DNA of 64,000 nt. Origin: Acidobacteriota bacterium (GTDB taxonomy: Bacteria; Acidobacteriota; Thermoanaerobaculia; UBA5066). The notes under the pieces were generated by a model, which was not told where the DNA came from, ran no database searches, and worked only from the letters and a program-made list of their open reading frames with translations. Shown piece after piece: positions 29,003 to 50,497 of this stretch (position 1 is the stretch's first letter; every line of letters starts with the position of its first letter). The stretch is from the NCBI GenBank assembly GCA_039930645.1, contig JBDTTJ010000001.1, positions 2,554-66,553 of the forward strand. Direction: 5' to 3'. The position numbers and the translations under genes are program-made.

Positions 29003-30562
29003 TCAGCCCTCCAGCAGGGCGAGCCGGCCCACGCGCTCAAAGTTCAGCGCGATTCCCTTCTCGACGTCCGCAGCAAGAGCCGCATTCGCGGGGTCACTCT
29101 CCCGGAGGGCCGTCGCCATCTCCGCCGCGATCGTCGCGCGATCGCGGGTGCCGTCGAGCAGAAGGAGAAACGTCCGCACGATGGGATCCTCCAGCTGGAC
29201 CTCCTGGTGCCGAAGGTTCGTCACTGGCACGCGCGACCGCGCCTGGTGCCGCGCGAGGGCGCTCACGCGAGGGCGTTCCGAGACCCTCGTGACGAAGGGG
29301 CTCGAAGAGCTTCGAAGCTCGATCACGTTCGCGCCGTAGGAGGCGAGCAGGAAGCGAAGCAGCCGCGTCTCGTCCTCGGCCGTTGCGAATTGGCCTCCGG
29401 CCGCCAGGACGCGCGCGCGGGCGGCGGCGAAAAGTTCGGGAACCGGGACCCAGCTCGGCCAGATCGTCCCGAGCTCGAGATAGGCGGCCTTCGAGAGAGG
29501 GTGCCGCGTCGTCACCTCTGCGTTGCGGTCGGTCACGAAGCAGGTCGGCGCGTCCGAGGCGGCGTCGGAGTCCTGGGATTTCGGCCGTGTGCTCGCGCCG
29601 ACGTACAGGGAGCGAAGGACTTCGGGATCGGGCGAGGCCGAGAGAGAAACGTCTTCGCGGCAGAGAAGTGTCTGCCGAAAACGGCGGAAGATCAGGAAAT
29701 CTCGGTACTGCTGCTGCAGGATGATGTTCTCGGCCCCCACCGCGAGCATGAAACGGCCGGCCGGGCTGTCGGCGTCCCAGACGGCCATGTCGCAGTAGTC
29801 GGCTTCCGACAGGAACCTGAGCCGGTGCCGGCGCGCGCGCTCGATGAAGTCGACGAACAGGAGGGGTTCGTTGATCTCGGCGAGGTCGTCGTGGAACAGC
29901 ACCGCGTCCAGCTGCTTCTTTTGGTGTTCGAGCGTCTCGTTCAGGATTGCCGAGAAGACCGGCCGCGGCGGCGCGGCCTCCGAGAGAAAGTGGATGAATC
30001 CCCGCGCCTGCCTGATCTTCTCGGCGGTGTCCTCGACGTCCCGCACGTGCCAGCGCATCATCTGACGCATCGCGTTGCGGACATGGCAGCCGGGCAGCGC
30101 GTTGTAGCTCACGTACGCGACGCCGTTCGGAGCGAGCGCCTCGGAGGCGAGCGCGAGCACGCGCTCCTGGACTGCCGGCGGGACCCACGAGTAGAGGCCG
30201 TGCGCGATGACGTAGTCGAACGTGCCGAGAGCCGAGACGTCCAGGAGGTCGGCGTGACGGAGCGCCACGTTCGTGAGGTCGAGAGCCGCGATCTGCGCGC
30301 GGCCGTCCTCGACGGCCGAGCCCGCCGCGTCAATGCCGAGGAAAGTGCTCCCCGGGAGGGCATAGGCCATCGGGATCAGGTTGCCGCCGTTGCCGCATCC
30401 CAGCTCGAGCACGCGACAGCGTTCGGGCGGAGCGGGCCTGAGGCCGTGAAGCGCCGCAATCGTCGCGAGGCGATCCGGATGGGTCTGCGGGAACGCGGAC
30501 CCCGGATACGTGACCGTGTCGTATGGAGTCGGTTCCTTTTCGGACATGTGAGAGGCAATCAT
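29003..30562 (-). CDS. class I SAM-dependent methyltransferase with C-terminal methyltransferase-regulatory domain
   Basis: 'VLELGCGNGGNLIPMA' (motif I), 'DYVIAHGLYSWV'. C-terminal region about 300 aa. Confidence 0.65.
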   Translation of the reverse strand: MIASHMSEKEPTPYDTVTYPGSAFPQTHPDRLATIAALHGLRPAPPERCRVLELGCGNGGNLIPMAYALPGSTFLGIDAAGSAVEDGRAQIAALDLTNVALRHADLLDVSALGTFDYVIAHGLYSWVPPAVQERVLALASEALAPNGVAYVSYNALPGCHVRNAMRQMMRWHVRDVEDTAEKIRQARGFIHFLSEAAPPRPVFSAILNETLEHQKKQLDAVLFHDDLAEINEPLLFVDFIERARRHRLRFLSEADYCDMAVWDADSPAGRFMLAVGAENIILQQQYRDFLIFRRFRQTLLCREDVSLSASPDPEVLRSLYVGASTRPKSQDSDAASDAPTCFVTDRNAEVTTRHPLSKAAYLELGTIWPSWVPVPELFAAARARVLAAGGQFATAEDETRLLRFLLASYGANVIELRSSSSPFVTRVSERPRVSALARHQARSRVPVTNLRHQEVQLEDPIVRTFLLLLDGTRDRATIAAEMATALRESDPANAALAADVEKGIALNFERVGRLALLEG

Positions 30563-30623: not shown

Positions 30624-32123
30624 ATGTCCAAACGCCCGCCGTCCGGCAACGTCGACGTGAGGCTGGGAAGCGGAACCCAGGCGTCGGGGGAGCCGCTCGA
30701 TCCCGAAATGCCGTTTCGTCTGCTCGTGCTCGGCGACTTCGGCGGCGCCGGCAGTTCCCCGCTCGCGACACTCAGACTGCATGCCATCGATCGGGACGTC
30801 CTCGAAGAGGAGCTCGAAGGTCTCCAGGCAGCGATGGACGTGCCCCTCGGCGGAGGCCAAACCGCGAAGATCACACTCCGCGATCTCGACGACTTCCACC
30901 CGGACCGCCTCCTCGAGCGCGTCGACGCCCTCACGGACTTGCGCAAGACGCGCGCGCGGCTCGAGAACCCCGCGACGTTTCGCGAGGCGGCGGGCGAGGT
31001 GCGCGGGTGGGCCGGTCCTCCTCCGGCGCGACGCGAGGGAGCCGCGGCCACGGCGCCCGCCAGTGCGGAGGACGACGTCGTGGGCGAGCTCCTCGCGGGG
31101 GCCTCGCGGCGGGCGAAGGCCGCGGATTCCGCGTTCGAGGACGAGCTGAAGGCGATCGTCCGGCCCCATCTCGCCCCGGAGGAGGACGCCGACCTCCCCC
31201 GTCTGAAGGAGGCGGTGGACGAGGCGCGCGCGGGGCTGCTCCGCGCGATCCTTCGCAGCCCCCGATTCCGGGAGCTCGAAGCCGCGTGGCGCACTCTCGA
31301 CCTGCTCGTGCGCCGGGTCGGGGACGAGTCCGTTCGCGTCTTTTTCCTCGACGTGTCGCGCGCGGCGCTCGTCGAGGACATCTCGAGTCACGAGAAGCTC
31401 TCCGGCACGGGTCTCTACCGGCGCCTGGTGACCGAGACGCTCGGCACGCCGGGTGCGGAGCCGTGGGGCGCCGTCCTCGGGCTCTACGACTTCGGTCCGA
31501 CGCTCGCCGACGCGGCGCTGCTGTCGCGCATCGCCAAGATCGCCCAGGCGGCCGGGGCTCCCTTCCTCGCGGGCGCGCGGCCGGATCTCGTCGGGTGTGC
31601 ATCCCTCGCCGGGACACCGGACCCAGACGACTGGAAGAAGTCCGAGGACGACGGAGCGATCATCTGGGAGGAGCTCCGCGTCCTGCCCGAAACCAGCTGG
31701 GTTGCGCTCGCCCTGCCGCGCCTCATGTTGCGCCTCCCGTACGGCGCGAAGACCGATCCGATCGATGCCTTTCCGTTCGAAGAAATCCCGGATGCTCCGG
31801 ACCACGACGCTTACCTCTGGGGGAATGCGGCCGTCGCGTGCGCCCTCGTCCTCACGCGTGCGTTCGAGCTGGGAGGGTGGGACCTCAAGCCCGAGACGGC
31901 GGCCGAAATCCGGGGTCTGCCCGCGCACGTCTTCAAGGACGGTCTCGAAACGCGGGTCACTCCCCCGTCGGAGGTCGTCCTGACTCTCCGAGCCGCGGAG
32001 AGGATCCTCGAGGCCGGGCTCGTTCCCGTTCTGTCGCTCAAGGGCAGCGAGAGCGTGCGCGTCGCGCGCCTCCAGCCGATCGCGAGCCCCCTCCGCGCCC
32101 TCGCCGGGAGATGGCTGCGCTGA
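30624..32123 (+). CDS. TssB-TssC fusion-like sheath paralogue (single-chain, truncated)
   Basis: The N-terminal ~150 aa align with TssB/VipA of this same cluster ('PFRLLVLGDFGG...IDRDVLEE...DDFHPDRLLERVDAL' against 'PFVVGVLGDFSG...IDRDNFDQ...TDFEPDQVVQQVEPL'). Residues ~220-470 align with the TssC core ('LPRLMLRLPYGAKTDPIDAFPFEE...YLWGNAAVACALVLTRAFELGGW...GLPAHVF' against 'LPHTLMRLPYGKDTNPVESFNFEE...YLWGNAAYSYGTRLTEAFALYNW...GLPAHTF'). Confidence 0.6.
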   Translation: MSKRPPSGNVDVRLGSGTQASGEPLDPEMPFRLLVLGDFGGAGSSPLATLRLHAIDRDVLEEELEGLQAAMDVPLGGGQTAKITLRDLDDFHPDRLLERVDALTDLRKTRARLENPATFREAAGEVRGWAGPPPARREGAAATAPASAEDDVVGELLAGASRRAKAADSAFEDELKAIVRPHLAPEEDADLPRLKEAVDEARAGLLRAILRSPRFRELEAAWRTLDLLVRRVGDESVRVFFLDVSRAALVEDISSHEKLSGTGLYRRLVTETLGTPGAEPWGAVLGLYDFGPTLADAALLSRIAKIAQAAGAPFLAGARPDLVGCASLAGTPDPDDWKKSEDDGAIIWEELRVLPETSWVALALPRLMLRLPYGAKTDPIDAFPFEEIPDAPDHDAYLWGNAAVACALVLTRAFELGGWDLKPETAAEIRGLPAHVFKDGLETRVTPPSEVVLTLRAAERILEAGLVPVLSLKGSESVRVARLQPIASPLRALAGRWLR

Positions 32124-32139: not shown

Positions 32140-32691
32140 CTAGGACCAGCCCCAGAAGTGCACGTACTTCTGCGGATTCCGGCCGGCCTTGAAGGCCTCG
32201 GGAGAGGCGAAGATGAGGGGATTGCCGATGTCGAGAGTGGAGTGCCAGTCGAACACGTAGATCCTGTCGTTCGTCACGGTGACGGCCGTGGCGGTGTGAA
32301 AGTCATGCGGCGGATCGCTCGGCGTACGGTCCACCGGGCCGGCGCCGATCAGGAACTCGTAGCCCGGCTTGCCCGCGACGCCGGTCAGGACCCGCGCGGT
32401 GGCCTCGGCGACGCCGGTGCAGGCCTGTTTGGCGCCGAGCCGCTCCCAGTGGTCCTGTGTGCGCTTTCCCGCCTCCGGAAAGCCAGCCCAGCTCTGGACG
32501 GCCTTGTCCGCGCCGGCCACACTCATCGTCCAGGCGTTCGCGAAGTTCCGGGCCGTGCCGGCATGGCCGATCGGCGAGAAGAACTTGAACGCGCTCACGC
32601 TCGGCAGCAGCACGCCGCACTGCTGATCGCCCCGCACCGCTCTGACGATTGCGTCCGCCATCGCGCGGGTGAGGCCGTATTCGTTCGCCAT
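32140..32691 (-). CDS. small hypothetical protein with ordered Cys...His...Asp candidates (possible papain-like amidase / T6SS effector-like)
   Basis: 183 aa with no signal peptide. 'GDQQCGVLLP', 'HDFHTATAVTV' and 'DRIYVFDWH' occur in an order consistent with a papain-like fold. Family not recognised. Confidence 0.3.
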   Translation of the reverse strand: MANEYGLTRAMADAIVRAVRGDQQCGVLLPSVSAFKFFSPIGHAGTARNFANAWTMSVAGADKAVQSWAGFPEAGKRTQDHWERLGAKQACTGVAEATARVLTGVAGKPGYEFLIGAGPVDRTPSDPPHDFHTATAVTVTNDRIYVFDWHSTLDIGNPLIFASPEAFKAGRNPQKYVHFWGWS

Positions 32692-32720: not shown

Positions 32721-33983
32721 CTAGTACGGCTCCCGGACGGCCGAGTGGCTCGCCGCACCCTGCGGGAAGACCTCGAGGTCCGGAGGACGGCCCTTCCAGC
32801 TCCCGTCGAGCGTGCCTCTCAAGCGCGCCTCCCAGAGAGATTCGCGGTCGAGCACGGCGAGCGCGTCGGGGGAAGGCCCTCGTGACACGTCGTGGCCGCG
32901 GCACCAGCGTGTTCCCCTCGCGGCATCCGGGCGCCGCTTCTCCCACGCCGCGCGCGCCTTCCGTTCGTCGGGCAACGGCATCTCGTCGAGGAATTCGGCC
33001 TCGAACGCGTCGGGCTCCTTTCCGTCCGCGGGCGGGACGACCGTGCGGCGGCCCGAGTCGACGTCCTCTCCGGTGATCTTCGTGAATGCCTGCCCGGCGA
33101 ACGCGGACGCCGCGAGGTCGAGTCCACCCATGGCGTGGAGGAGAGTCTCGACCCCGGCGGGATGGCCGAGGACGCCGAGGACCCGGTAGCGCTCGGGGCC
33201 GCTTCCGACGTCCTTCACCCACGCGAGGACACGCTCGAGATCTGCCGCGTCTCCCGTCGCCGCGACGAGGTACATGGAGTCCGCGTCCGCGCCGCCCGCC
33301 CCCCTCCGGCCGCGGCGGACGTCCTCGAGCGCCCAGGTCTGCCGACACCAGAGCGCCGCCTCCCGCGCGGCGGCGCGCACCCAGGCGTCCGGGTCCGAGA
33401 GGCCGCGCTCCCAGAGAGCCCGGCTCTGGGGAAGTGCGGCGAGGCTCACGACACGCCACGCCCTGCGCCGGACGACGGGCTCATCCGACGCGAGCCACGC
33501 CTCCTGGGCGCGGCTGTCGGGCGCCAGGCGGCCGCGCAGCGCGAGCGCCTCGGCGGCGGCGACGGAGCGCATCGGCGGCGCGGCGGTCACGGCTTGCTGC
33601 AGGCGCGAAAGCAGAGCATCGGCCGGGCCGTGGGCGAACGCCTCCGCCAGCCCGTCGGCGCGTGGACCCGACACGGAGGCGAAGGCCTCCCAGACGCGGT
33701 CCACGCTGCCCGGAATCCTCGAGCGCAGGAGGCCGAAGCCGGCGGCGAAGGCGGCGTCGGCGTCGTCCCCTTCCAGGCCCGGACGGACGAACGCGTCCAG
33801 CTCGTCGCCGGCGATCAAGAGACCCTGAAGATGCGCCTCGATCCGCTTTTCGAGCCGCGCGAGATCCCGGGGCATGAAACGCGGCGACCGCAGCGCCCCG
33901 CGGCGCTGCCCCCACAGGAACGCGAGCTCCTCGAAGTGCTCCTCGACGAGGTCGGGCAGGAACTTCAGCGAAGCGTCGGTCAT
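32721..33983 (-). CDS. HEAT/PBS-lyase-like repeat protein
   Basis: 420 aa. Repeated 'DxDAWVRAAAREAAL'-type HEAT units such as 'SDEPVVRRRAWRVVSL' and 'SDPDAWVRAAAREAALW'. Confidence 0.45.
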   Translation of the reverse strand: MTDASLKFLPDLVEEHFEELAFLWGQRRGALRSPRFMPRDLARLEKRIEAHLQGLLIAGDELDAFVRPGLEGDDADAAFAAGFGLLRSRIPGSVDRVWEAFASVSGPRADGLAEAFAHGPADALLSRLQQAVTAAPPMRSVAAAEALALRGRLAPDSRAQEAWLASDEPVVRRRAWRVVSLAALPQSRALWERGLSDPDAWVRAAAREAALWCRQTWALEDVRRGRRGAGGADADSMYLVAATGDAADLERVLAWVKDVGSGPERYRVLGVLGHPAGVETLLHAMGGLDLAASAFAGQAFTKITGEDVDSGRRTVVPPADGKEPDAFEAEFLDEMPLPDERKARAAWEKRRPDAARGTRWCRGHDVSRGPSPDALAVLDRESLWEARLRGTLDGSWKGRPPDLEVFPQGAASHSAVREPY

Positions 33984-34002: not shown

Positions 34003-34434
34003 TCAATTGAGGGAGACGGCCCCGCCCTTGATGCGGTTCATGCGTTTGGCGTGCGACACGAGGTCCTTCCCCTTGATCAGGATTTTCCCGTCGGCGCGAA
34101 TCGTGATCGAGCCGTCGCCGACCCGGAGGACAAGGCCTTTGCGAGCCTCGATCACGAGCGTGTCGGGAATCTCTTTCGGGGGCACGGGATCTGCGCTCGG
34201 GCCGATCCGGCCGAGGACGACGCCGTCGTCGGGGCGTCCTGCGGGCAACCAGACGAGGACCCGATCGCCGACGGCCAGCCCGACCGGGACGTCGGCGGTC
34301 TGCAGTTGGCTGCATTCCGTCACGGAATTGGTCGTGCCCTCCAGTGCGACGAGGAGTCGTCCGTCGCCACGAATCTCCATGATCCTGCCGAGCACGCCTG
34401 CGGAGACGGTGAATGTGGGCGTCTCCGTCTTCAT
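34003..34434 (-). CDS. small gp5/VgrG-tip-like protein ('mini-spike')
   Basis: 143 aa. The C-terminus 'GDGSITIRADGKILIKGKDLVSHAKRMNRIKGGAVSLN' parallels the VgrG C-terminus of this locus ('GDASITLKKDGTIQIKGKDITISG...'). The N-terminus is OB-fold-like. Confidence 0.4.
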   Translation of the reverse strand: MKTETPTFTVSAGVLGRIMEIRGDGRLLVALEGTTNSVTECSQLQTADVPVGLAVGDRVLVWLPAGRPDDGVVLGRIGPSADPVPPKEIPDTLVIEARKGLVLRVGDGSITIRADGKILIKGKDLVSHAKRMNRIKGGAVSLN

Positions 34435-35387
34435 CGTTCCTCCTTCTTGGACTCCATCCCGTCGGAGACTACGACGACCGCCGAGCTCGACGCCGAAAGC
34501 AGCGTCTTTCGATCGATGACCGTCGCGCGGAGCGTGGACGTTCCGGCCGTCTTGCCAGAGAATCGGAAGACGTTGGCATCTTCATGGGCGAGGCTGAGCC
34601 GGTCGTCCGGATCTTCGACCTTGAAGAAGACCGCGTCGGGTTGCTTCGACGCCAGTCGGACCGTGACGCGAGCCTCGTCGCCCACGTGAAGCCGTGACGG
34701 GTCCACGACCAGCTCGGCGATGCGCGGGATTTCCGAGGCGACCGTTCCAAGGTGGCTCTCCATCTGTCTCTGAAGGTCCCGCGCGAAGACGAGAAGATCG
34801 ACCCCGCTGTCATCGGCGTCGACGGAAACGCAGACGTTCGCGTAGACCCAGATGAGGGTGGGAACCTTCGGATTCACGTGGGTGATCGCCAGGTCGCCCA
34901 GACCCGTCGGCCCCGCGACATAGGGGATGTCGACCGTCATCGTTCGGCCGGCCAGCTCCACGAGGCGCTCGCGCGCCGTCCGCGATCCGGAACTCGACAC
35001 ATGAATTTCGACCGTGAAGGTGCCGCGGTCGTTCCGCGCCTTCTGGACGCGATACCCCTCGCCCGGAGCGTCGGACGTGACGAAGTCCACGAGGCGGCGC
35101 CAGCCGCCGTCTCGCAGCCCGGCGCCGGTCTCGAGGTCGGGCCATTCGAAGACGACGTCACCGCGGCCCCCCCCTCCGGACGCGAGGAGCTCGAAGCCGA
35201 TGGCCTTCTTGAAACGCTCTACCCGGCTTTCTTCTCCCATCGCCTTCCTTTCCGGAGTCAGGGCGCAGCCCGGTGCGCCGAGCAAACCGACCGCGAGGAC
35301 GAGCGCGAGCCTAGACGACGTCGCGGACTCCGGCGCACCACTGCATGTCCTCCACGCGCCCCGGCCGCAAGTTCTGGTAGGCGGCAT
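34431..35387 (-). CDS. putative lipoprotein/periplasmic protein. Candidate immunity protein
   Basis: Hydrophobic 'LALVLAVGLLGAPGCA' segment after a 26-aa basic N-region. The annotated ATG overlaps the upstream gene by 77 nt, so the start is uncertain. Confidence 0.4.
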   Translation of the reverse strand: MPPTRTCGRGAWRTCSGAPESATSSRLALVLAVGLLGAPGCALTPERKAMGEESRVERFKKAIGFELLASGGGGRGDVVFEWPDLETGAGLRDGGWRRLVDFVTSDAPGEGYRVQKARNDRGTFTVEIHVSSSGSRTARERLVELAGRTMTVDIPYVAGPTGLGDLAITHVNPKVPTLIWVYANVCVSVDADDSGVDLLVFARDLQRQMESHLGTVASEIPRIAELVVDPSRLHVGDEARVTVRLASKQPDAVFFKVEDPDDRLSLAHEDANVFRFSGKTAGTSTLRATVIDRKTLLSASSSAVVVVSDGMESKKEER

Positions 35388-36456
35388 AAAGGGGGGTCAC
35401 GTCATCGATCCCGGCATCCACGTAGTCCTGGTAGCTCTCGGTCCCCGTATGCGGGCCCGCGCAGGCGTCGAGAATCCGCGGCTCGAAGGCACCGAACGCA
35501 TGATTCCCGAACGGCGTCCGGGCAGGGTCGTCTTGCGAGACGAGCTGAGCACTCCCGTTCATCCTGAAGAATGGGTTGTTGCACGGGCCGTATCCCAGAA
35601 GGCTCGTGATGTTGATGAAGCCGTAAGGATTCAGGAAGACCCAGCTGAGCTTGGCCCCGAGCGCCCCGGAAAGGGTCTGGATCGCGGCGGCCTGGTCGTA
35701 GCAGTTCGCGAACTCCTCCTGGCGGGCCAGATAGGACTCGAGCTGAAAGGTGCCGCCGCGTTGGCCGACGCCATAGTGCGACCGGCCCCCGCCCGCGCTG
35801 TCGTAGGAGAGTCTGTGTTGCCGGTGGCAATAGGCGGCGACCCGGGCGGCCGCATCCCGAGGGTCGGTCACGTTGACGACACCCGCGCGGCTGCAGAGGA
35901 AGCGGAGCGCCTCCGCCCAGACGCCCTTCTTGTCCTGAAACACCGGAATCGGCGTGTCCAGGACCGAGAACACCTCGAGCCTCGTGATGTTCAGGGCGAA
36001 ATCGTGATTCGCCGACGGAACCGTCAGGACCCACACCATGTTTCCCCAGAACCACTGGATGCCCTCGGGGAGTTCGGGGATTCGGGCCTGCAACGTATGC
36101 GTCCCCTCGCCGAGAGGGCAGTCGCCCTCGATCGTCAGGTCCCGGAGAATGCCCGTCAACTTGCCCTGTCCGGAGATCTTCTTGCTCTCGAGAATCTGGA
36201 CCTTCACCTCGACCTTCTGGACGTTGAGGCTTCCGCCCGATTTCGAGCCACGAACCACGATCGCGGCGGGCCGCTTCGAGTATCTGTTGTCTTCGATGTC
36301 CGCTCCGTCAGCCCAATGGGGCCCCTGGACCGTGCTCTTCTGCCAGGCCACCTTCACCTCGCTCAGGAACTTCACCTCGACCACCCGGGCACGCAGGACC
36401 GGGACGTCCTCGTCCATGATCATCGAAAGTGCGACCGCTTCGCCGATGTCGGTCAT
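35311..36456 (-). CDS. hypothetical 381-aa protein immediately downstream of PAAR-like gene. Candidate T6SS cargo effector
   Basis: No signal peptide. Conserved-looking 'NPYGFINITSLLGYGPCNNPFF' and 'CYDQAAAIQTL'. Positioned PAAR-like -> this gene -> lipoprotein. Confidence 0.4.
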   Translation of the reverse strand: MTDIGEAVALSMIMDEDVPVLRARVVEVKFLSEVKVAWQKSTVQGPHWADGADIEDNRYSKRPAAIVVRGSKSGGSLNVQKVEVKVQILESKKISGQGKLTGILRDLTIEGDCPLGEGTHTLQARIPELPEGIQWFWGNMVWVLTVPSANHDFALNITRLEVFSVLDTPIPVFQDKKGVWAEALRFLCSRAGVVNVTDPRDAAARVAAYCHRQHRLSYDSAGGGRSHYGVGQRGGTFQLESYLARQEEFANCYDQAAAIQTLSGALGAKLSWVFLNPYGFINITSLLGYGPCNNPFFRMNGSAQLVSQDDPARTPFGNHAFGAFEPRILDACAGPHTGTESYQDYVDAGIDDVTPLYAAYQNLRPGRVEDMQWCAGVRDVV

Positions 36457-36468
36457 CGCGCGCTTCGC

Positions 36469-36855
36469 CTACCCGAGGATGTTCTTCTTGTTGTGGAACA
36501 GCTGGTCCCCCATGCGGCACACGTTGTTGCCTTCGAATTTCACGTCGAACGAGTAGATCAGGAACTCGCAGACGCTCATGTTGATGCTGGAAAGAATGCC
36601 GCCGGCCACTCCGGCTTCGTCGCCCGACGAGCGCGAATACTGCGCGCCCTTCACCATGGGCATCTGGCCGTCCGTCGTGACGGTGTTCGGACCCTGGGTC
36701 GTGTCCGAGGACATCCCGATGTTGGGATAAGGGATCGGGACCGGACTCGGGGCCGGTGGCGCCGGCGTCTTGCAGACATCCGGAAAGACGATCGAAACGC
36801 CGTTGCTTCCCTTGTGGACGATGCCGCGGAAGTTCGCGAAGGTGGCCTGGCCCAT
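36469..36855 (-). CDS. PAAR-like DUF4150 protein (stand-alone)
   Basis: 128 aa. 'VHKGSNGVSIVFPDVCKTPAPPAPSPVPIPYPNIG' fits the DUF4150 signature 'DVCKTP...P.PY.N'. Confidence 0.6.
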   Translation of the reverse strand: MGQATFANFRGIVHKGSNGVSIVFPDVCKTPAPPAPSPVPIPYPNIGMSSDTTQGPNTVTTDGQMPMVKGAQYSRSSGDEAGVAGGILSSINMSVCEFLIYSFDVKFEGNNVCRMGDQLFHNKKNILG

Positions 36856-37924: not shown

Positions 37925-38938
37925 CTACGCTGCCTTCGCGACGATCGGCTCGACCTCGCGGACCTTCAGGAGTCGTTTGTCGCAGGGGAGGGCCGCACGC
38001 CAAACGAGGTCGAGACGCGACTCGTCCGGGTGGAGAATCACCGTGTCGAGGTTGGCCGAGCGTCTCTCCTCGCCGGAATCCAGACGGAAGAGAACGTCCA
38101 CACGGCGCGCCGGGAGGGAGAACCTCAGGGCGCCCGAGGGCGTCGCGCCGGCGATTTCCACCGGCTCCCCGCCCTTCAGGTAGGAGGGGATCTGCTGGTC
38201 GGCGGGGGCGATCTGCAGGAAGCGCGTGTCGAAGTCCCTCGGGAGGTACGGCGCGCGGCTCTTCTGCCACTCCTCGTCGTACGTCCCGGCGTACTTCGGG
38301 CGCGGCTTCCAGTGGGGCGCGACGACGCCGAAGCCCGCCGGCGTGGGGCGGTCGCCGGGCGAGGAGATGAGCCGGAGAGGATCCTCGATGTTGGGCAGGG
38401 CGATCTCCTCGAGCTTTCGCCCGCTGACGCGTGAGCGAAAGCCGGTCCCGACCGGGTTGCGGTCGTCCGCTTCGGAGCGGGGCGGGTCGCCCGTCGGCGG
38501 CTCGGTGCCGCCGAACGCGCGTTCCCAGACGAGCGGCATCCTCTCGAACGGCTCGGGCCCGGAAATGCGGGTCAGGACCGTCCCCGCCCATCGTCGATCC
38601 CCGAAAACCACGACGTGCTTCTCGATCGAGGCGAGGCGAAGGGAGACCTCCGCCTGGCGCGTCGGCCGCCCTCCCGGCCCGTAGGCGTGGCCGAAGAGAA
38701 GGACGTCGGTGCCGGGCTTGGAGAGAGAGATGTCGCCGGGCTCCGCGATGCTCGTCCTGAGCGGGTCGCCGTGAAAGCGATCGGCCGTGACGATCGGCGT
38801 CTGTTTCTCGGCCTCCTCGACGCGCGGGCCGAGGGTGAACGTGCCCTTGACGATCGCGAAGAGCGTCTCGACTCCTCCGGGATCGGGCGACGAAAAGAGA
38901 GTCGCCGTGAATCGCGTGCGGTTCTTCAACTGGAGCAT
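37925..38938 (-). CDS. DUF2169-family T6SS adaptor protein
   Basis: 337 aa, immediately downstream of vgrG. 'LFAIVKGTFTL' N-terminus and 'ERAFGGTEP...NPVGTGF' are typical of DUF2169. Confidence 0.6.
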   Translation of the reverse strand: MLQLKNRTRFTATLFSSPDPGGVETLFAIVKGTFTLGPRVEEAEKQTPIVTADRFHGDPLRTSIAEPGDISLSKPGTDVLLFGHAYGPGGRPTRQAEVSLRLASIEKHVVVFGDRRWAGTVLTRISGPEPFERMPLVWERAFGGTEPPTGDPPRSEADDRNPVGTGFRSRVSGRKLEEIALPNIEDPLRLISSPGDRPTPAGFGVVAPHWKPRPKYAGTYDEEWQKSRAPYLPRDFDTRFLQIAPADQQIPSYLKGGEPVEIAGATPSGALRFSLPARRVDVLFRLDSGEERRSANLDTVILHPDESRLDLVWRAALPCDKRLLKVREVEPIVAKAA

Positions 38939-38954: not shown

Positions 38955-41120
38955 TCAGTTCTGCGAGATCTTCGACCCCTTCATCGTGATGTCCGAGGAC
39001 GCCTTGACGTTGATTTTGCCGGTCCCCGAGATCGTGATGTCCTTTCCCTTGATCTGGATCGTTCCATCCTTCTTCAACGTGATGCTCGCGTCACCCGTCT
39101 GGAACTGGATCTCGTCGCCCGCGACGAGGGAGTACTTCTTCCCGACAGTCGTTTCGGAGCTCTTTCCCACGCTCGTCGCCTGGCCCGTGCCGACGCTCGT
39201 GTTGAGCGCCCCACCCACGCTCAGCGACAGGGCCGCTCCGACGGCCCACGTGCCGTTTGCGCCGATCGTGACCGAACGGTTCGCTCCCACGGAGAGGGTC
39301 TCTGCCACCCCGACGGTCTCGGTCCGGTTGAGGGCGATCGTGATCGTCTCGTTCTGTCCGACGGTCTCGGTCCGGTTGCTTCCGATCGAGATGGTCTCGT
39401 TGTTGTCGACCGTCTCCGTCCGGTCGTGTTTGACGTGCGTCGTCTCGTCGTGGTCGATCGTCTTGGAGCGGTCGTGCCCCACCCAGTGCGTCTCGCTGTT
39501 CTCGACCTCGATGTCCTGGTTCTTCTCGGCGTGCAGGAAGACCTGTTCGTGACCCTTCTTGTCCTCGAAGCGGAACTCGTTGAAGTGCGACGGATTGCCG
39601 CCGAGACTGCTCCGGCTCTTGAGCCCGCTCTGCGTCTTGTTCGCGGGCAGGCTGTACGGCGGCATGCACTCGGCGTTGTAGACGCTGCCGATGACGATCG
39701 GCTGGTCCATGTCCCCCTCGAGGAAGTCGACCACGACCTCCTGTCCGATGCGGGGGATGTGGATCGCACCCCACTGCTTGCCGGCCCACGGCGTGGCCAC
39801 CCGGACCCAGCAGGAGCTGTCGCTGTTGCTCTTGCCTTCGCGGTCCCAGTGGAACTGCACCTTGATTCGCGAGTACTTGTCCGTGAAGATCTCCTCGCCC
39901 GGGGGCCCGACGACGACGGCGGTCTGCGTCCCCTTGACCGTCGGAATCGGCGTGACGCGCGGCGGCCGGAAGGGCAGCGCGGCCGGGAAGCACGTGAAGT
40001 GGTTCTCATAGGTGAACCCGCCGCCGCCGGCGCGCAGGTCGGCGGCGTCGGACGCGGAGTGCTCGACCTGGTAGACGACCCACGAACCGTCTCCGGCGAA
40101 ATGGCGCTCGAGGGTGAACTTGTGGCCCGAGACGATCTGGCGGCAGTTGCTCGCGGCGTGCACGAGGATGCTGGCGGCCGCCTGCTCTTCCATGCGCAGA
40201 CGGGCGGTCCGCTTGTTGTCGTCGAAGACCTTCTGGATGTCCGCGGGACGATCGCCGCCCCCAGGCTGGATTCCGTCGAAACGCTGCGCGTACGCGCCGG
40301 GGAAATCGTACAGCTCGAGTGGGGAATTGGCCGCGAGCTTGAGCTTGTGGCTCGTCTTTCCGGCGGCGACCGCCGCCAGGATCTCGTTCTCGGCGTCGAG
40401 GTGCTTGTGCGGCAGCTCGAAGCAGTGGTCCCACAGAACGACCTTCGAGGACTTGAGCTCCTGGGCCTTCTCCCAGGCATTGACGCGGTCCTCCGTGCGT
40501 GTTCCCCCGCCGACCGCCTCGAAGATCAGGCTGCTCGGGCCGGGAAGCGAGGCGTGGCTGCCCGGGGTGTTGGCGACGACCATCGTGTGGGAGCCGGCGC
40601 CGTGCTTGAAGAAGTAGTAGATGCCCTCTTCCTCCATCAGGCGGCTCGCGAACGCGAAGTCCGACTCGCGGTACTGGACGCAGTAGTCGCGGGTGGGAAA
40701 GACCCCCTGGATCTCCCAGGAGACGTCGAGACCGACGAGGACCTTCTTCAGGATGTCGGGAACCGAGATCTGCTGGAAGATGCGGCTCTGCGTCTTTCGG
40801 GCCAGCAGGAGAGCCTGCGGGACGAGGTCGAGCACGAAGCGCGTGAACGTGGCGTCCCGCGCTCCCTCCGCCACCCTCAGGCAGGTGCCGTTGAGGTAGC
40901 GCGGGCTTCCTCCGGGCATGGCGATCTCCGCCGTGATCTTCTGGCCGAGGAGAGCGTCGAACACGACCTGCTTCGCCTTGTCGTTCTCGGCGACGCACTC
41001 GAGCTGAAACTGGAAAGGCCGGGAGATCGCCTCGTGTCCCGAGAAGCCGTTCAGGATCAGGACGTCGGGGCCGAGCGGCGTCGTGACCTTGAGCCGGCGG
41101 CCGGACTGGGAGTAGGACAC
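38955..41120 (-). CDS. vgrG: type VI secretion spike protein VgrG (TssI)
   Basis: 'RRLKVTTPLGPDVLILNGFSGHEAISRPFQFQLE', 'DYCVQYRESDFAFASRLMEEEGIYYFF', gp27/gp5 domains and a C-terminal beta-helix. Confidence 0.9.
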   Translation of the reverse strand: MSYSQSGRRLKVTTPLGPDVLILNGFSGHEAISRPFQFQLECVAENDKAKQVVFDALLGQKITAEIAMPGGSPRYLNGTCLRVAEGARDATFTRFVLDLVPQALLLARKTQSRIFQQISVPDILKKVLVGLDVSWEIQGVFPTRDYCVQYRESDFAFASRLMEEEGIYYFFKHGAGSHTMVVANTPGSHASLPGPSSLIFEAVGGGTRTEDRVNAWEKAQELKSSKVVLWDHCFELPHKHLDAENEILAAVAAGKTSHKLKLAANSPLELYDFPGAYAQRFDGIQPGGGDRPADIQKVFDDNKRTARLRMEEQAAASILVHAASNCRQIVSGHKFTLERHFAGDGSWVVYQVEHSASDAADLRAGGGGFTYENHFTCFPAALPFRPPRVTPIPTVKGTQTAVVVGPPGEEIFTDKYSRIKVQFHWDREGKSNSDSSCWVRVATPWAGKQWGAIHIPRIGQEVVVDFLEGDMDQPIVIGSVYNAECMPPYSLPANKTQSGLKSRSSLGGNPSHFNEFRFEDKKGHEQVFLHAEKNQDIEVENSETHWVGHDRSKTIDHDETTHVKHDRTETVDNNETISIGSNRTETVGQNETITIALNRTETVGVAETLSVGANRSVTIGANGTWAVGAALSLSVGGALNTSVGTGQATSVGKSSETTVGKKYSLVAGDEIQFQTGDASITLKKDGTIQIKGKDITISGTGKINVKASSDITMKGSKISQN

Positions 41121-47359: not shown

Positions 47360-48844
47360 TTACTTCCTCGTCGGAGCCGGCAGCTCGGCCACGAGGCGCA
47401 GGGAAACCGACAGCTCATCGAGCTGGAAGTGAGGCCGGAGGAAAGCGATCGCCTTGTAGACGCCGGGCTTGCCGGGAACCTCCGCCACCTCGATTCGGGC
47501 CTCGCGAAGGGGAAACTGCGCCTTGACGGAAGGCGAGGCCGTGTCGTCGGGGGTGACGTAGTTCGCGATCCACTTGTTGAGGAAGAACTCGACGTCGGCG
47601 CGCGAGGCGAAGCTGCCGATCTTGTCCCGCATGATCGCCTTGAGGAAGTGGGCGAATCGGGACACCGCGAAGATGTAGGGGAGCTGCGTCGAGAGACGCG
47701 CGTTCGCATTCGCGAAGTCGGTGTCGTACTTCTTCGCCTTCTGGGCCGACTGCCCGCCGAAGAACGCCGCGTAGTCGGTGTTCTTGCAGTGGACGAGCGA
47801 GATGAAGCCGAGGTCCGAGAACTCCTTCTCGCGGCGGTCGGTGATGGCGATCTCGGTCGGGCACTTCAGCGCCACGTCGCCTTCGTCGGTCTGGAAGGTG
47901 TGCGCCGGGAGCCCCTGCACGAGCCCGCCGCCCTCCACGCCGCGGATCGCGACGGTCCAGTTGTAGAGGGCGAAGGCCTCGGTCAGGCGCGTTCCGTAGG
48001 AGTAGGCCGCGTTTCCCCAGAGGTATTTCTTGTGGTCCTTGCCGTCCACGTCCTCTTCGAAATTGAAGCTCTCGACCGGGTTGGTGTCTTTCCCGTAGGG
48101 AAGGCGCATGAGCGTGTGGGGAAGGGTGAGCCCGACGTAGCGCGAATCCTCCGAGTCGCGGAACGAGCGCCACTTGGCGTACTCGGTCCGGTCGAAGATC
48201 TTGGCGAGGTCGCGCACCTCGGTCAGCTCGGTATACGTCTGCCAGCCGAACATCTCCGGCGAGGCGGCCGAGATGAAGGGAGCGTTCGCCGCGGCGGCGA
48301 CGCCCGAGATCTTCTCGAGGAGCGACATGTCCTGCGGGTGGTTGCCGAACTCGTAGTCCCCGATCAGAGCACCGAACGGGGCGCCGCCGAACGTTCCGTA
48401 CTCCTCTTCGTAAATCTTCTTGAAGAGCGCGGACTGGTCGAATTCCGCGGCCCGCTCGAGATCCTTCAGGAGGTCCTTCTTGGACACGTTCAGCACCCGG
48501 ATCTTGAGCATCGTCGACGTCTCGCTCTCGAACACGAGATGGTGCAGGCCGCGCCAGCTTCCCTCGAGCTTCTGGAAGTCCGGGTGGTGCATGACCTCGT
48601 TGAGCTGCGCCGAGAGGAGCTTGTCGATCGCCACGATGCGCGCGTTGATCGTGTGCTCGAGGTCCTTGGAGAGGACCACCTGCCCCTGGAGAGCCTGCTG
48701 GACGAATTCCGCCAGCATGTCCTTGGCGTTGTCCACCTGGTCCTCGCGAAGGGCCAGACGCCCGCTCTCGAGGATCTTGTTGAGGAGTCCCCCCTCCTGC
48801 TCCTGAACGACGGACTCGGCCTTTTTTTCGGGGTTCTTACTCAT
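47360..48844 (-). CDS. tssC: T6SS contractile sheath large subunit TssC (VipB)
   Basis: 494 aa. 'YLWGNAAYSYGTRLTEAFALYNWTVAIRGVEGGGLVQGLPAHTF'. Confidence 0.9.
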   Translation of the reverse strand: MSKNPEKKAESVVQEQEGGLLNKILESGRLALREDQVDNAKDMLAEFVQQALQGQVVLSKDLEHTINARIVAIDKLLSAQLNEVMHHPDFQKLEGSWRGLHHLVFESETSTMLKIRVLNVSKKDLLKDLERAAEFDQSALFKKIYEEEYGTFGGAPFGALIGDYEFGNHPQDMSLLEKISGVAAAANAPFISAASPEMFGWQTYTELTEVRDLAKIFDRTEYAKWRSFRDSEDSRYVGLTLPHTLMRLPYGKDTNPVESFNFEEDVDGKDHKKYLWGNAAYSYGTRLTEAFALYNWTVAIRGVEGGGLVQGLPAHTFQTDEGDVALKCPTEIAITDRREKEFSDLGFISLVHCKNTDYAAFFGGQSAQKAKKYDTDFANANARLSTQLPYIFAVSRFAHFLKAIMRDKIGSFASRADVEFFLNKWIANYVTPDDTASPSVKAQFPLREARIEVAEVPGKPGVYKAIAFLRPHFQLDELSVSLRLVAELPAPTRK

Positions 48845-49376
48845 GGGGTTCTTCCTTCTTCGCGTCCTCGTCCGTCACGACGCCGAGCTGCTTGCCCAGC
48901 TGCCTCTGAGCGTTCGGGTCCTTGAGGAGGTCGGTCAGCATGGCCTCGAGCTTGTCGTTCCCGTCGGTCTTCGACAGGATGTCGCGCAGCTTCTGGCGGG
49001 CTTCGACGAGCTTTCTCAGGGGTTCGACCTGCTGGACGACCTGATCGGGCTCGAAGTCCGTCATGTTGTTGAACTTCATCTCGACGTTCATCTTGCTGCC
49101 GTCGTCGGACAGCTTGTTGTCCACGCGAAGAGCGAGGCGAGGAGCCTGGGCCGCGAGGACCTGGTCGAAGTTGTCGCGGTCTATCTCGATGAGCTTCCGG
49201 TCTTTCAGCCTCGGGAGCGCCTCGACCGGCTGGCCGGAGAAGTCGCCGAGGACCCCGACCACGAACGGCAGCTCCTTCATCTCGATGGCGCCGCCGATCT
49301 CCACGTCGTACGTGATCTGCACGCGGGGAGGGCGAATCCTCTTGAGTTTTTGCTGGATGCTTTCCTTCTTCGGCAT
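48837..49376 (-). CDS. tssB: T6SS contractile sheath small subunit TssB (VipA)
   Basis: 179 aa. 'LPFVVGVLGDFSG'. Overlaps tssC by 8 nt. Confidence 0.9.
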   Translation of the reverse strand: MPKKESIQQKLKRIRPPRVQITYDVEIGGAIEMKELPFVVGVLGDFSGQPVEALPRLKDRKLIEIDRDNFDQVLAAQAPRLALRVDNKLSDDGSKMNVEMKFNNMTDFEPDQVVQQVEPLRKLVEARQKLRDILSKTDGNDKLEAMLTDLLKDPNAQRQLGKQLGVVTDEDAKKEEPHE

Positions 49377-49387
49377 GGATCCCTCCC

Positions 49388-50497
49388 TCAGGTACCAGTG
49401 CTGCCGGACTCGCCCTTGAGGCCGAGAGTTTCGCGCAGACCGGCGAGAACGTTGTTGTCCTTGATCACGTCGACGAGCCAGGCGTCGAGCGGCATCTGTC
49501 CCCAGGTGATCGCCCGCTGGACGAGGTACGAGACCGGGCTGTGCGGCTCGGTCCGACGGAAGTAGTCGGCGACCTGCGCGAGCTGGGCGAGCGCCTGGTC
49601 GCGGGCCCTGATGGCCCCGCCCGGCCCGCCCGCGGCGCCTCCCGCCGATTCGCCCTCGGCCCCTTCCGCGGCGTCGGACGGGTCGGGCTCTTCGAGCCGT
49701 TTCTCCTTGACGACCTTCTCGAGCAGGCTCCGGATCCCCTCGAGAGTCTTCGTGAGGCTGCCGAGTCCAGGGGTCTGGCGCGCGAAGCGGGCGTCCATCG
49801 CCTTGTCGAGAGCCTTCAGCGCCGCCCAGCTCTCGGCGACGTCCGAGCTGAGCTCCTCGTAAAACGCCCGGCGCGTGTCGCTCTTGGCCTTCCGGATCTC
49901 CTCTCCCGTGACCTTCCCTTCCATCTGGGCGCGCGCGCGCTTCTCTTCCAGCTGCTGAAGCGCCTCGCTGGAGAGCTTCGACGTGTCTGCCGGAAAGTCG
50001 TACTGAAGGGCGTCTTCCCACTGGAAGAAGTTGAAGTTCGCCCCGCCGCGTTTCGTCAGGGATACCTTCCTGGCGGCATCCGCGGCCTGTCGGTCCAGCC
50101 ACGCGAGCGAGTTCGCGCGCGCCTCGAGGTCGTTTCCCTCGTCGATCTCGGGATACAGAGTGTCCCAGTAGGTGTCGAGAAGGCCGGCAGCGAGCTTGAG
50201 CGAATCCCTCAGGCCCGGGAAGCCGTTCATGTTCACGGCGGCTTCGGAAAGCCAGGCCACGATCTGGAGATCCTTCGTCTTGCCGGCCAGGCTCTCACCG
50301 GATAGCTCGGCCACCTTCTCCCAGTCGGCTACTTTCAGTTCGTGAACCCAGTCCCCCTGCGAAACGTCGTCGTCGGCGCGGCGCGCCTCGCGGATCTCGT
50401 CGTGGAGCCCCGAATACTGCAGGTTCTCCCCGCTCGGGTTTTCACCGGCGATCGGCGCGAGGAGCGCGTCCAGGTTGAAAACAGGGGCTGACGGCAT
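49388..50497 (-). CDS. tssA: T6SS protein TssA (ImpA N-terminal domain)
   Basis: 369 aa with an ImpA_N-like N-terminus: 'FNLDALLAPIAGENPSGENLQYSGLHDEIREAR...WEKV'. Confidence 0.7.
   Translation of the reverse strand: MPSAPVFNLDALLAPIAGENPSGENLQYSGLHDEIREARRADDDVSQGDWVHELKVADWEKVAELSGESLAGKTKDLQIVAWLSEAAVNMNGFPGLRDSLKLAAGLLDTYWDTLYPEIDEGNDLEARANSLAWLDRQAADAARKVSLTKRGGANFNFFQWEDALQYDFPADTSKLSSEALQQLEEKRARAQMEGKVTGEEIRKAKSDTRRAFYEELSSDVAESWAALKALDKAMDARFARQTPGLGSLTKTLEGIRSLLEKVVKEKRLEEPDPSDAAEGAEGESAGGAAGGPGGAIRARDQALAQLAQVADYFRRTEPHSPVSYLVQRAITWGQMPLDAWLVDVIKDNNVLAGLRETLGLKGESGSTGT

Follow-up and report, generated by a model that had tools for sequence, protein, structure and literature searches.

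The cargo end of a spike-loading operon of a type VI secretion system (T6SS), in which a separate effector of transglutaminase-like fold is followed by its candidate immunity gene, is the best overall explanation of a group of genes from an Acidobacteriota bacterium (GTDB lineage Bacteria; Acidobacteriota; Thermoanaerobaculia; UBA5066), and is held to be probable. The genes lie in a 64,000-nucleotide (nt) stretch of a metagenome-assembled genome (MAG; NCBI GenBank assembly GCA_039930645.1, contig JBDTTJ010000001.1, positions 2,554 to 66,553 of the forward strand, 69% G+C), which was analyzed at its full length and is called the window; all coordinates are window positions. The operon is a module of a known kind, synteny type A or Tvp class II, and the pair is a new effector-immunity family within that kind of system; both families appear to be uncharacterized in the libraries and literature searched. 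An earlier interpretation made from the DNA letters and a list of open reading frames (ORFs), the sequence-only reading, had the gene arrangement largely right and missed both this placement and a conserved internal start, Met50, of the immunity gene. The genes from VgrG to the ARM/HEAT-repeat protein, all on the minus strand, are as follows.

38955-41120, minus strand: VgrG spike protein, 721 amino acids (aa), with Phage_GPD, Gp5_trimer_C and Phage_base_V domains (TIGR03361, E = 5e-169)
37925-38938, minus strand: DUF2169 chaperone (TvpA), 337 aa, matching the full PF09937 profile (E = 3e-98), its role being taken from PMC11883445 and PMC13373197
36858-37916, minus strand: thiolase/KAS-like protein of the PRK06147 type (TvpD-like co-chaperone), 352 aa (NF004798, E = 5.5e-47; PF00109, E = 5e-07)
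36469-36855, minus strand: stand-alone PAAR-like DUF4150/PIPY spike-tip protein, 128 aa, matching the full PF13665 profile (E = 3e-39)
35311-36456, minus strand: cargo effector, 381 aa, described from its homologues, an AlphaFold2 (AF2) model and Foldseek, with no Pfam or NCBIfam match
34431-35387, minus strand: predicted immunity gene, long form, 318 aa from the ATG at 35387, of a cognate family that adjoins or is fused to the effector family
34003-34434, minus strand: oligonucleotide/oligosaccharide-binding (OB)-fold protein, 143 aa, probable TvpC of the DUF6484 type, with weak matches to DUF6484, phage gpV and the VgrG OB region
32721-33983, minus strand: ARM/HEAT-repeat protein of the TIGR02270 family, 420 aa (TIGR02270, E = 6e-40; weak HEAT_2 match)

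These genes sit inside a complete T6SS cluster, ClpV, TssG, TssF, TssC, TssB, TssM and TagJ also being encoded within the window, and their order is kept in five orthologous loci from metagenomes and MAGs. The PIPY, effector and immunity ORFs are not chance ORFs, since all three have strongly conserved homologues in conserved synteny. Synteny type A DUF2169 clusters comprise DUF2169, thiolase-like, DUF6484, armadillo-like and DUF4150 genes (Sachar et al., 2025, PMC11883445), and in Tvp class II TvpA is DUF2169, TvpD is PRK06147 and TvpC is DUF6484 (Monlezun et al., 2026, PMC13373197); the locus is such a module. The DUF2169 gene adjoins the VgrG gene and is followed by the PRK06147-type gene, whose product (353 aa in orthologues; start ATG 37916 with a Shine-Dalgarno (SD) value of -6.1) matches NF004798 with 160.7 bits over 326 of 349 profile positions, a family-level match and not an equivalog because the score is below the cut-off of 342 bits. 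For the 143-aa protein, which is 59-68% identical across orthologous loci, the DUF6484 match is weak (E = 0.065, 14.4 bits against a cut-off of 27.6), and size and conserved position fit TvpC. The 420-aa protein scores 137.5 bits with TIGR02270, below the cut-off of 206.8, is 78-86% identical in orthologous loci and is the fourth conserved accessory gene of synteny type A.

The same gene set is present in the Tvp class II models (Pseudomonas aeruginosa VgrG1b-PA0096-PA0097-PA0098-Tse7; Proteus mirabilis PefE), the TvpC-type gene being included by its weak DUF6484 match. In Tse7 and PefE the PIPY region is the N terminus of the toxin, whereas in the window a 128-aa PIPY protein and the toxin are encoded by separate genes, the effector-immunity pair is followed downstream by the TvpC-like and ARM-like genes, the toxin has a transglutaminase fold and the host is an acidobacterium. 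Serratia marcescens VgrG1-Paar1 (Tvp class III) likewise combines a small DUF4150-type tip, an independent cargo effector and an immunity gene, but differs in its pentapeptide-repeat TvpB, DUF3540-type TvpC and membrane-targeting effector.

The 381-aa protein has an acidic N terminus and no signal peptide, and gave no match to Pfam or NCBIfam at E ≤ 0.1, in line with the earlier description of it as a protein without signal peptide or recognizable family. Sequence and profile searches of the PDB with the effector and immunity families gave no meaningful matches, and a viral fold library gave nothing for the effector at E ≤ 0.001. More than 290 homologues were found, in Acidobacteriota, Myxococcota (M. 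xanthus, Pyxidicoccus, Nannocystis, Archangium), Desulfobacterota, Burkholderia, Lysobacter, Variovorax, Gilliamella and Planctomycetota, with remoter ones in Methanosarcina and Clostridia. The AF2 model (predicted local distance difference test, pLDDT, 94.2; predicted template modeling score, pTM, 0.90) consists of an N-terminal beta-sandwich (residues ~20-165) and an alpha/beta transglutaminase-like core (~170-381). When this model was searched against the PDB with Foldseek, the top 37 matches were all of the transglutaminase family (TG2, TG3, factor XIIIa, a fish transglutaminase and band 4.2), with E values of 2.7e-6 to 1e-3, probabilities of 0.98-1.0 and template modeling (TM) scores of ~0.35-0.45, and covered both domains. 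The fold assignment is considered solid because the model is confident and the matches are uniform; the relation is visible at the fold level only, since no Pfam, NCBIfam or PDB sequence or profile match was obtained. Animal transglutaminases (TG2, TG3, factor XIIIa, band 4.2) share the arrangement of an N-terminal beta-sandwich ahead of a Cys-His-Asp core (best Foldseek E = 2.7e-6), whereas the effector aligns with them at a TM score of ~0.40 and ~10% identity, lacks their C-terminal beta-barrels, has an invariant Tyr after the Cys (N-C-Y-D-Q-A) and does not match Transglut_core. The predicted transglutaminase-like catalytic core is Cys252-His319-Asp330.

35701-35703, minus strand: codon of predicted catalytic Cys252, in N-C-Y-D-Q-A, at the N terminus of helix 252-265 (model, DSSP)
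35500-35502, minus strand: codon of predicted catalytic His319, in F-G-N-H-A-F, in strand 319-324 (model)
35467-35469, minus strand: codon of predicted catalytic Asp330, in D-A-C-A-G-P-H, at the end of strand 327-330 (model)

Cys252 is invariant in an alignment of 100 sequences and in 19 fusion proteins; His319 and Cys332 are invariant in the effector alignments (28 and 100 sequences), and Asp330 is invariant among the 28 aligned sequences, at least 90% conserved among the 100 and retained by all 19 fusions. His319 and Asp330 lie on neighboring strands of the model. Two further conserved cysteines were observed, C292 (G-x-C292-N-N-P-F-F, at least 90% conserved) and the invariant C332 (D-A-C332-A-G-P-H); they co-vary in the fusion proteins, both sequences that lack C332 also lacking C292, which hints at a disulfide or a metal site.

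The effector behaves as an exchangeable toxin module. Its domain is fused to PIPY in P0092 and P0120 (confirmed by Pfam), in loci L023, L026 and L030 and in about a dozen of the top 120 matches; it forms the C terminus of a VgrG in L008, and is fused to LysM in P0084 and P0100/L021 and to OmpA-like plus PG_binding_1 domains in L041 and L043. A housekeeping enzyme was ruled out by the company of the gene, which is found together with delivery modules of the T6SS and with immunity genes.

The 128-aa DUF4150 protein carries the VPIPYP motif within APSPVPIPYPNIG, as read from its translation. DUF4150 is defined by a P(I/V)P(Y/F) "PIPY" motif that replaces the PAAR motifs (PMC11883445), and is found alone or as the N terminus of toxins (PMC11883445, PMC13373197). 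The PF13665 match and the absence of a named family for the 381-aa protein bear out the sequence-only reading of a stand-alone DUF4150 tip followed by a separate cargo effector; the gap between the PIPY stop and the effector ATG is 12 nt and not the 13 nt then given, and 2 nt separate the TvpD-like stop from the PIPY gene. That reading had also proposed looking for fused homologues, as signs of a split gene. Fused forms exist, as given above, at ~525 aa, and the break in the window falls exactly at the inter-domain linker, as if the PIPY and 381-aa genes were pieces of one DUF4150-toxin gene broken by a recent split or by an assembly or frameshift artifact. The inference to a split gene is nevertheless misleading, since the two genes are separate and intact, with the stand-alone PIPY gene directly before the effector gene in a DUF2169-KAS-PIPY module, in at least 12 loci of several phyla (Acidobacteriota, Myxococcota, Eisenbacteria, Planctomycetota and others). 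Among orthologous loci the PIPY protein is 93-95% and the effector 74-76% identical, the effector ATG follows the 12-nt gap with an SD value of -6.3, and stand-alone DUF4150 proteins are documented (PMC11883445). A broken gene is thus scarcely credible, the artifact being ruled out by the conserved two-gene arrangement, and separate PIPY and effector genes are a stable alternative architecture.

The gene downstream of the effector is read, from its family and position, as the cognate immunity gene. Its hidden Markov model (HMM) domain lies beside an effector gene in ~50 non-redundant loci and next to or fused to one in ~57, sometimes as tandem copies (four in L008). An exhaustive search of representatives gave 199 immunity homologues, and a word-indexed profile search of the database gave 7. 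The protein is 62-64% identical to homologues P0123/P0124, and its stop overlaps the ATG of the gene for the 143-aa protein (ATGA). The AF2 model (pLDDT 94.5, pTM 0.90) has an N-terminal alpha/beta domain and a C-terminal Ig-like sandwich; in structure searches with it the Ig-like domain gave only generic matches (query TM-score, TMq, ≤ 0.28) and the alpha/beta domain none in the PDB. The alpha/beta domain is probably the inhibitory core, because some family members have no Ig-like domain. Natural fusions of effector and immunity domains had suggested that the immunity protein might be a homologue of the C-terminal beta-barrels of animal transglutaminases; the idea is unsupported, the Ig-like matches being only generic.

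Such single-chain proteins, effector-like with a C-terminal immunity-like domain, are ~620-700 aa long and occur in organisms without a T6SS (L046, L047, L049, L051 and L069, Methanosarcina; L052, Aminicenantes; L057, Clostridia; P0216-P0271). All 19 database fusion proteins keep the Cys, His and Asp residues, and one of the 19 has a signal peptide. In L008 (3859-10900 of that locus) four paralogous immunity genes, all with signal peptides of their own, stand in tandem after a VgrG-effector fusion of 1082 aa.

Between the effector stop and Met50 lies a spacer of exactly 70 nt in all six orthologues, without indels at ~65% nucleotide identity. Read in the immunity frame, it encodes an uncharged run of 13-19 residues in each of the six (P ≤ 0.008 in every case by comparison with dinucleotide shuffles), whereas the two remaining frames are rich in Arg, and on these grounds the spacer is taken to be coding and the leader to be real. 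In L073, the 84% orthologue, the core differs from that of the window by two synonymous changes only and is followed by an acceptable lipobox, LLGASSC. A split of spacer substitutions between window and L001 by codon position (7/8/8, hand count) was uninformative. Leaders with an upstream start, of the Sec or lipoprotein type, were found in 35 of 50 separate immunity genes, low-GC genomes included, and canonical lipoboxes in many of them, such as L010 (ILVAC), L011 (ALAGC), L013 (LLGGC), L039 (FGAC) and also L075. The leader of the window is similar to that of L013, a lipoprotein signal that is translationally coupled, MWRLAIVLYLLGGC.

35241-35387, minus strand: leader-coding segment, with the n-region (residues 1-26) inside the effector 3' end, the core L27-A38 at 35274-35309 and the Cys41 codon at 35265-35267

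In the window Arg26 is followed by the core LALVLAVGLLGA and then A-P-G-C41, giving the lipobox-like L-G-A-P-G-C41. The Arg26 codon shares nucleotides with the TAG stop of the effector gene (35311-35313), and the hydrophobic run begins with the next codon, at 35309, exactly after the stop as the sequence-only reading had it. Its claims on the start and signal stood in part. The ATG at 35387 lies 77 nt inside the effector gene (overlap 35311-35387) and is the sole canonical start upstream of the core, the only other, a TTG, being inside the core; the overlap is real for this longest-ORF start, but not for the annotated start as claimed, since public annotation begins at Met50 (35240). The lipoprotein-like signal downstream of the effector is a real leader by its coding in six orthologues, but its lipobox departs from the consensus [LVI][ASTVI][GAS]C, with Pro at -2. 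The proposed non-canonical start or programmed coupling is unneeded, because canonical in-frame starts occur in all orthologues within the effector 3' end, upstream of the core. Counted in codons before the conserved Met, these starts are:

L073, L001, L002 and L074: GTG at -31; L001, L002 and L074 also GTG at -32 and TTG at -29
L075: TTG at -29 and -33
L013: ATG at -22
window: ATG at -49 only

The GTG at -31 arises from the effector codons for W-C-x-G-V; in the window it reads GCG, and the window alone has the ATG at -49. The conserved C-terminal effector motif M-Q-W-C-x-G-V (35314-35340 in the window) encodes in its +1 frame the GTG leader starts of the relatives (TGG TGT GGT GGA GT giving GTG GTG), so that the effector and immunity genes would constrain each other over an overlap of 20-77 nt. 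A programmed +1 frameshift from the effector into the immunity frame is unlikely, the junctions GUC GUC UAG G (window) and GUC GAG UAG C (relatives) not being conserved slippery sites.

The second candidate start of the immunity gene is Met50.

35238-35240, minus strand: Met50, start of the public gene calls, at an internal start position conserved in the family
35244-35252, minus strand: GAAAGGAAG, purine-rich SD-like motif 3 nt upstream of Met50, with GAAAGGA conserved

GAAAGGA is common to the window, L073, L001, L002, L005 and L074. The NCBI entry of the identical protein (MAG Acidobacteriota ABI768_00180) has 269 aa from Met50, and all four close homologues found have 264-269 aa. In leader-bearing members a Met stands 7-13 residues before FKxxIGF in 27 of 38 database proteins (12.6% expected, P = 1.5e-16) and in 24 of 35 loci (P = 2.6e-14), 32 of the 35 having a Met after the leader; leaderless members begin at the same position. 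The Met is not structural, because most fusion proteins do not keep it. SD-like pairing before the post-leader Met averages -4.64 kcal/mol, compared with -2.74 before all codons and -2.41 before other internal Mets (P = 2e-6 to 3e-5). In Enterobacter cloacae, Tli is made as a periplasmic lipoprotein and, from starts downstream of the signal sequence, as a cytosolic form that is needed for active Tle (PMC11470151). The Tle-Tli pair (PMC11470151; bioRxiv 10.1101/2023.03.28.534661) likewise has a lipoprotein signal, lipoprotein-like in the window, with one or more alternative starts just downstream, the window's candidate being Met50 from family-wide conservation and SD enrichment; it differs in that the protein families are unrelated (lipase against transglutaminase fold) and that part of the window's immunity family has the short form only. 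In at least three loci the automatic gene call begins at the Met after the leader, so that a clear lipoprotein or Sec leader is lost (the window, P0121, 35240 instead of 35387; L011, P0161, ~4231; L019, P0178, ~7143). Database representatives comprise 67 short proteins and 38 with leaders, whereas at the DNA level 35 of 50 loci have leaders, which suggests systematic truncation by gene callers.

From the conserved Met, the SD enrichment and the Tli precedent, the best reading is a two-form immunity protein, long and periplasmic as well as short and cytosolic, which is offered tentatively, as plausible. Several findings weigh against it. The window's Met50 has an SD duplex energy of -4.1, mid-range among genuine window starts (+0.4 to -13.1), and the upstream ATG at 35387 a weak one of -3.3, at background level, so SD strength did not decide the start of the window; the position of the upstream start codon is not conserved, the window lipobox has Pro at -2, and the L001/L002/L074 subclade no longer has the lipobox Cys. 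Some of these would favor synthesis of the short form alone, in which the protein starts at Met50 (269 aa, cytoplasmic), the upstream stretch is a decaying signal-peptide relic or a non-coding spacer and the target is cytoplasmic. All public gene calls use Met50, its ATG follows the GAAAGGA motif, the window's upstream ATG is ACG in the 84% orthologue while a stop precedes it in others, and 15 of 50 members are truly leaderless. This is nonetheless quite improbable, as the uncharged run is kept in six orthologues without indels over 70 nt and with synonymous-only core changes relative to L073, each orthologue has some canonical upstream start (the window's ATG and the relatives' GTG being mutually exclusive), and clear leaders occur in most members, those of low-GC genomes among them. 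It is also improbable that the protein is made solely with its leader and that the conserved Met plays no part in initiation. In favor of this, the coding leader is found widely, upstream starts are in many cases preceded by a good SD sequence (mean -5.57) and the SD of Met50 in the window is no better than average; yet the Met is conserved exactly where leaderless members start (P ~1e-14 to 1e-16) and is dispensable in fusion proteins, SD-like sequences are enriched before it relative to other internal Mets (P = 2e-6), and Tli provides an experimental precedent.

The effector is probably a cell-wall-directed periplasmic toxin that acts on peptidoglycan or wall-linked substrates. The best available clue to the wall as substrate is that three independent types of peptidoglycan-binding module are fused to the one catalytic domain. 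The earlier proposal of an effector followed by a periplasmic immunity protein is supported by the same three fusion types, by the coding leader in six orthologues and by the leaders in 35 of 50 genes. Gamma-glutamyl amide bonds are handled by transglutaminase-fold and NlpC/P60 enzymes, so the most likely reaction would be that of an amidase, an endopeptidase or a transamidase on stem peptides. If so, the Tae/Tai pairs (Tse1/Tsi1, Ssp1/Rap1a, Tae4/Tai4) would share with the window a periplasmic Cys-His hydrolase of the papain-like superfamily and an exported immunity protein encoded just downstream. The window effector differs from them in having no sequence or family match to Tae1-4 (NlpC/P60/CHAP-type, ~150 aa), a ~2.5-fold larger size, an N-terminal beta-sandwich and an immunity protein of unrelated fold; no NlpC/P60 entry was among its top 50 Foldseek matches. 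In the literature library searched, no characterized T6SS transglutaminase-like cell-wall effector was found.

Weighing against a wall target, the assignment is one of guilt by association; the transglutaminase match is moderate (TM ~0.40, 10% identity) and does not discriminate between hydrolase, transamidase, deamidase and protease, and Pfam Transglut_core gives no match. The 15 leaderless immunity genes include neighbors of the LysM (L021) and OmpA/PG_binding (L043) fusions, and the seven effector-immunity fusion loci and 19 database fusion proteins (archaea, Clostridia, Aminicenantes) are mostly without signal peptides, so that the family may also act, or need restraint, in the cytoplasm. 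Leaderless immunity genes and cytoplasmic archaeal and clostridial fusions would mean either that the enzyme is dangerous in the cytoplasm too or that its target is not the wall; as a speculation, a gamma-glutamyl-meso-diaminopimelate (mDAP) amidase could attack cytoplasmic peptidoglycan precursors. The effector might instead modify conserved proteins, possibly in both compartments, as a deamidase, transglutaminase (cross-linker) or protease, its peptidoglycan-binding fusions serving only to retain or localize it. The nearest structures are protein transglutaminases, a part of the immunity genes has no leader, an internal start is conserved, and single-chain cytoplasmic fusions with intact triads are found in Clostridia and in Methanosarcina, which has no murein. 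A protein-modifying toxin is nevertheless less likely than a wall-directed one, as most immunity proteins carry export leaders, the domain has been joined to three independent types of peptidoglycan-binding module, and the papain/NlpC-P60/transglutaminase superfamily contains many gamma-glutamyl-diamino-acid peptidases of the wall.

Protein modification is also favored by the predicted action of Tox-TGase toxins on proteins (PMC3482391). These Tox-TGase/papain-like toxins (Zhang et al., 2012, PMC3482391), likened here by description, likewise have a transglutaminase-fold Cys-His-Asp module that is swapped between delivery domains and an adjacent immunity gene; Tox-TGase is linked mainly to the type III secretion system (T3SS), RTX and host-directed toxins (PMC3482391). 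The transglutaminase-like toxin EAT14 of extracellular contractile injection systems (eCIS; PMC11297309) was set aside, as its architecture differs (N-terminal DUF4157) and no relation is demonstrated.

By analogy with the published homologous systems, the 128-aa PIPY protein would cap the VgrG trimer and be chaperoned by DUF2169 (TvpA) and PRK06147 (TvpD), with the DUF6484-like protein as template of a pre-complex, and the 381-aa protein would ride as a separate cargo effector. In the periplasm of the target cell the effector may act on peptidoglycan or wall-linked substrates, most likely by hydrolysis or transamidation of gamma-glutamyl/diamino-acid amide bonds. The long immunity form would be exported as a lipoprotein or Sec substrate and neutralize incoming toxin, and a second initiation at Met50 would give a cytosolic form for the binding of freshly synthesized effector, in the manner demonstrated for E. 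cloacae Tli.

Several neighboring genes were noted around the module. A fused sheath-like paralogue is encoded besides the canonical TssB (48837-50102) and TssC (47360-48844); its equivalent in L002, 502 aa, is at the same place. Between this gene and the HEAT/ARM gene lies a small ORF, conceivably a second variable cargo gene, without a family match and with a QQC...H pattern; its similarity to the papain-like tegument protease region of herpesviruses was non-significant (E = 0.071), and its slot is variable, L002 having an unrelated 226-aa gene on the other strand. A methyltransferase-like gene flanks the T6SS cluster, and L002 has it in the same position (513 aa).

30624-32123, plus strand: fused sheath-like protein, 499 aa, with VipA/TssB-like (residues 22-115) and VipB/TssC-like (197-478) regions
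32140-32691, minus strand: ORF of 183 aa (MANEYGL...HFWGWS)
29003-30562, minus strand: protein-lysine-methyltransferase-like gene (Methyltransf_12/25, MethyTransf_Reg and PKMT winged-helix matches)

The effector represents a widespread, unnamed family of predicted antibacterial toxins with an architecture like that of animal transglutaminases, in Acidobacteriota, Myxococcota, Desulfobacterota, Burkholderia, Lysobacter, Planctomycetota and others, and the PDB gave no structural match for the N-terminal domain of its cognate immunity family. The locus extends the recently described Tvp class II loading scheme to a separate cargo effector with a stand-alone PIPY tip, here in a non-proteobacterial phylum. 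Leaders dropped by public gene calls would mislead surveys that infer the site of effector action from immunity signal peptides, and the conserved internal start lets the generality of two-form immunity, known so far from one lipase system, be tested. It is possible, if doubtful, that effector and immunity protein are two halves of an ancient self-restrained enzyme, which is a single cytoplasmic protein of ~650-700 aa with an intact Cys-His-Asp triad in Methanosarcina, Clostridia and Aminicenantes and is encoded by separate genes in T6SS bacteria, the immunity half being delivered to two compartments from two starts, the second of them a Met that 32 of 35 leader-bearing genes share across phyla. 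If this were true, the cytosolic form would be a restrainer or loader and the periplasmic form a shield, gene callers would systematically mis-annotate such immunity genes, and dual-compartment immunity would be a design principle of the whole family, beyond the single case of E. cloacae Tli.

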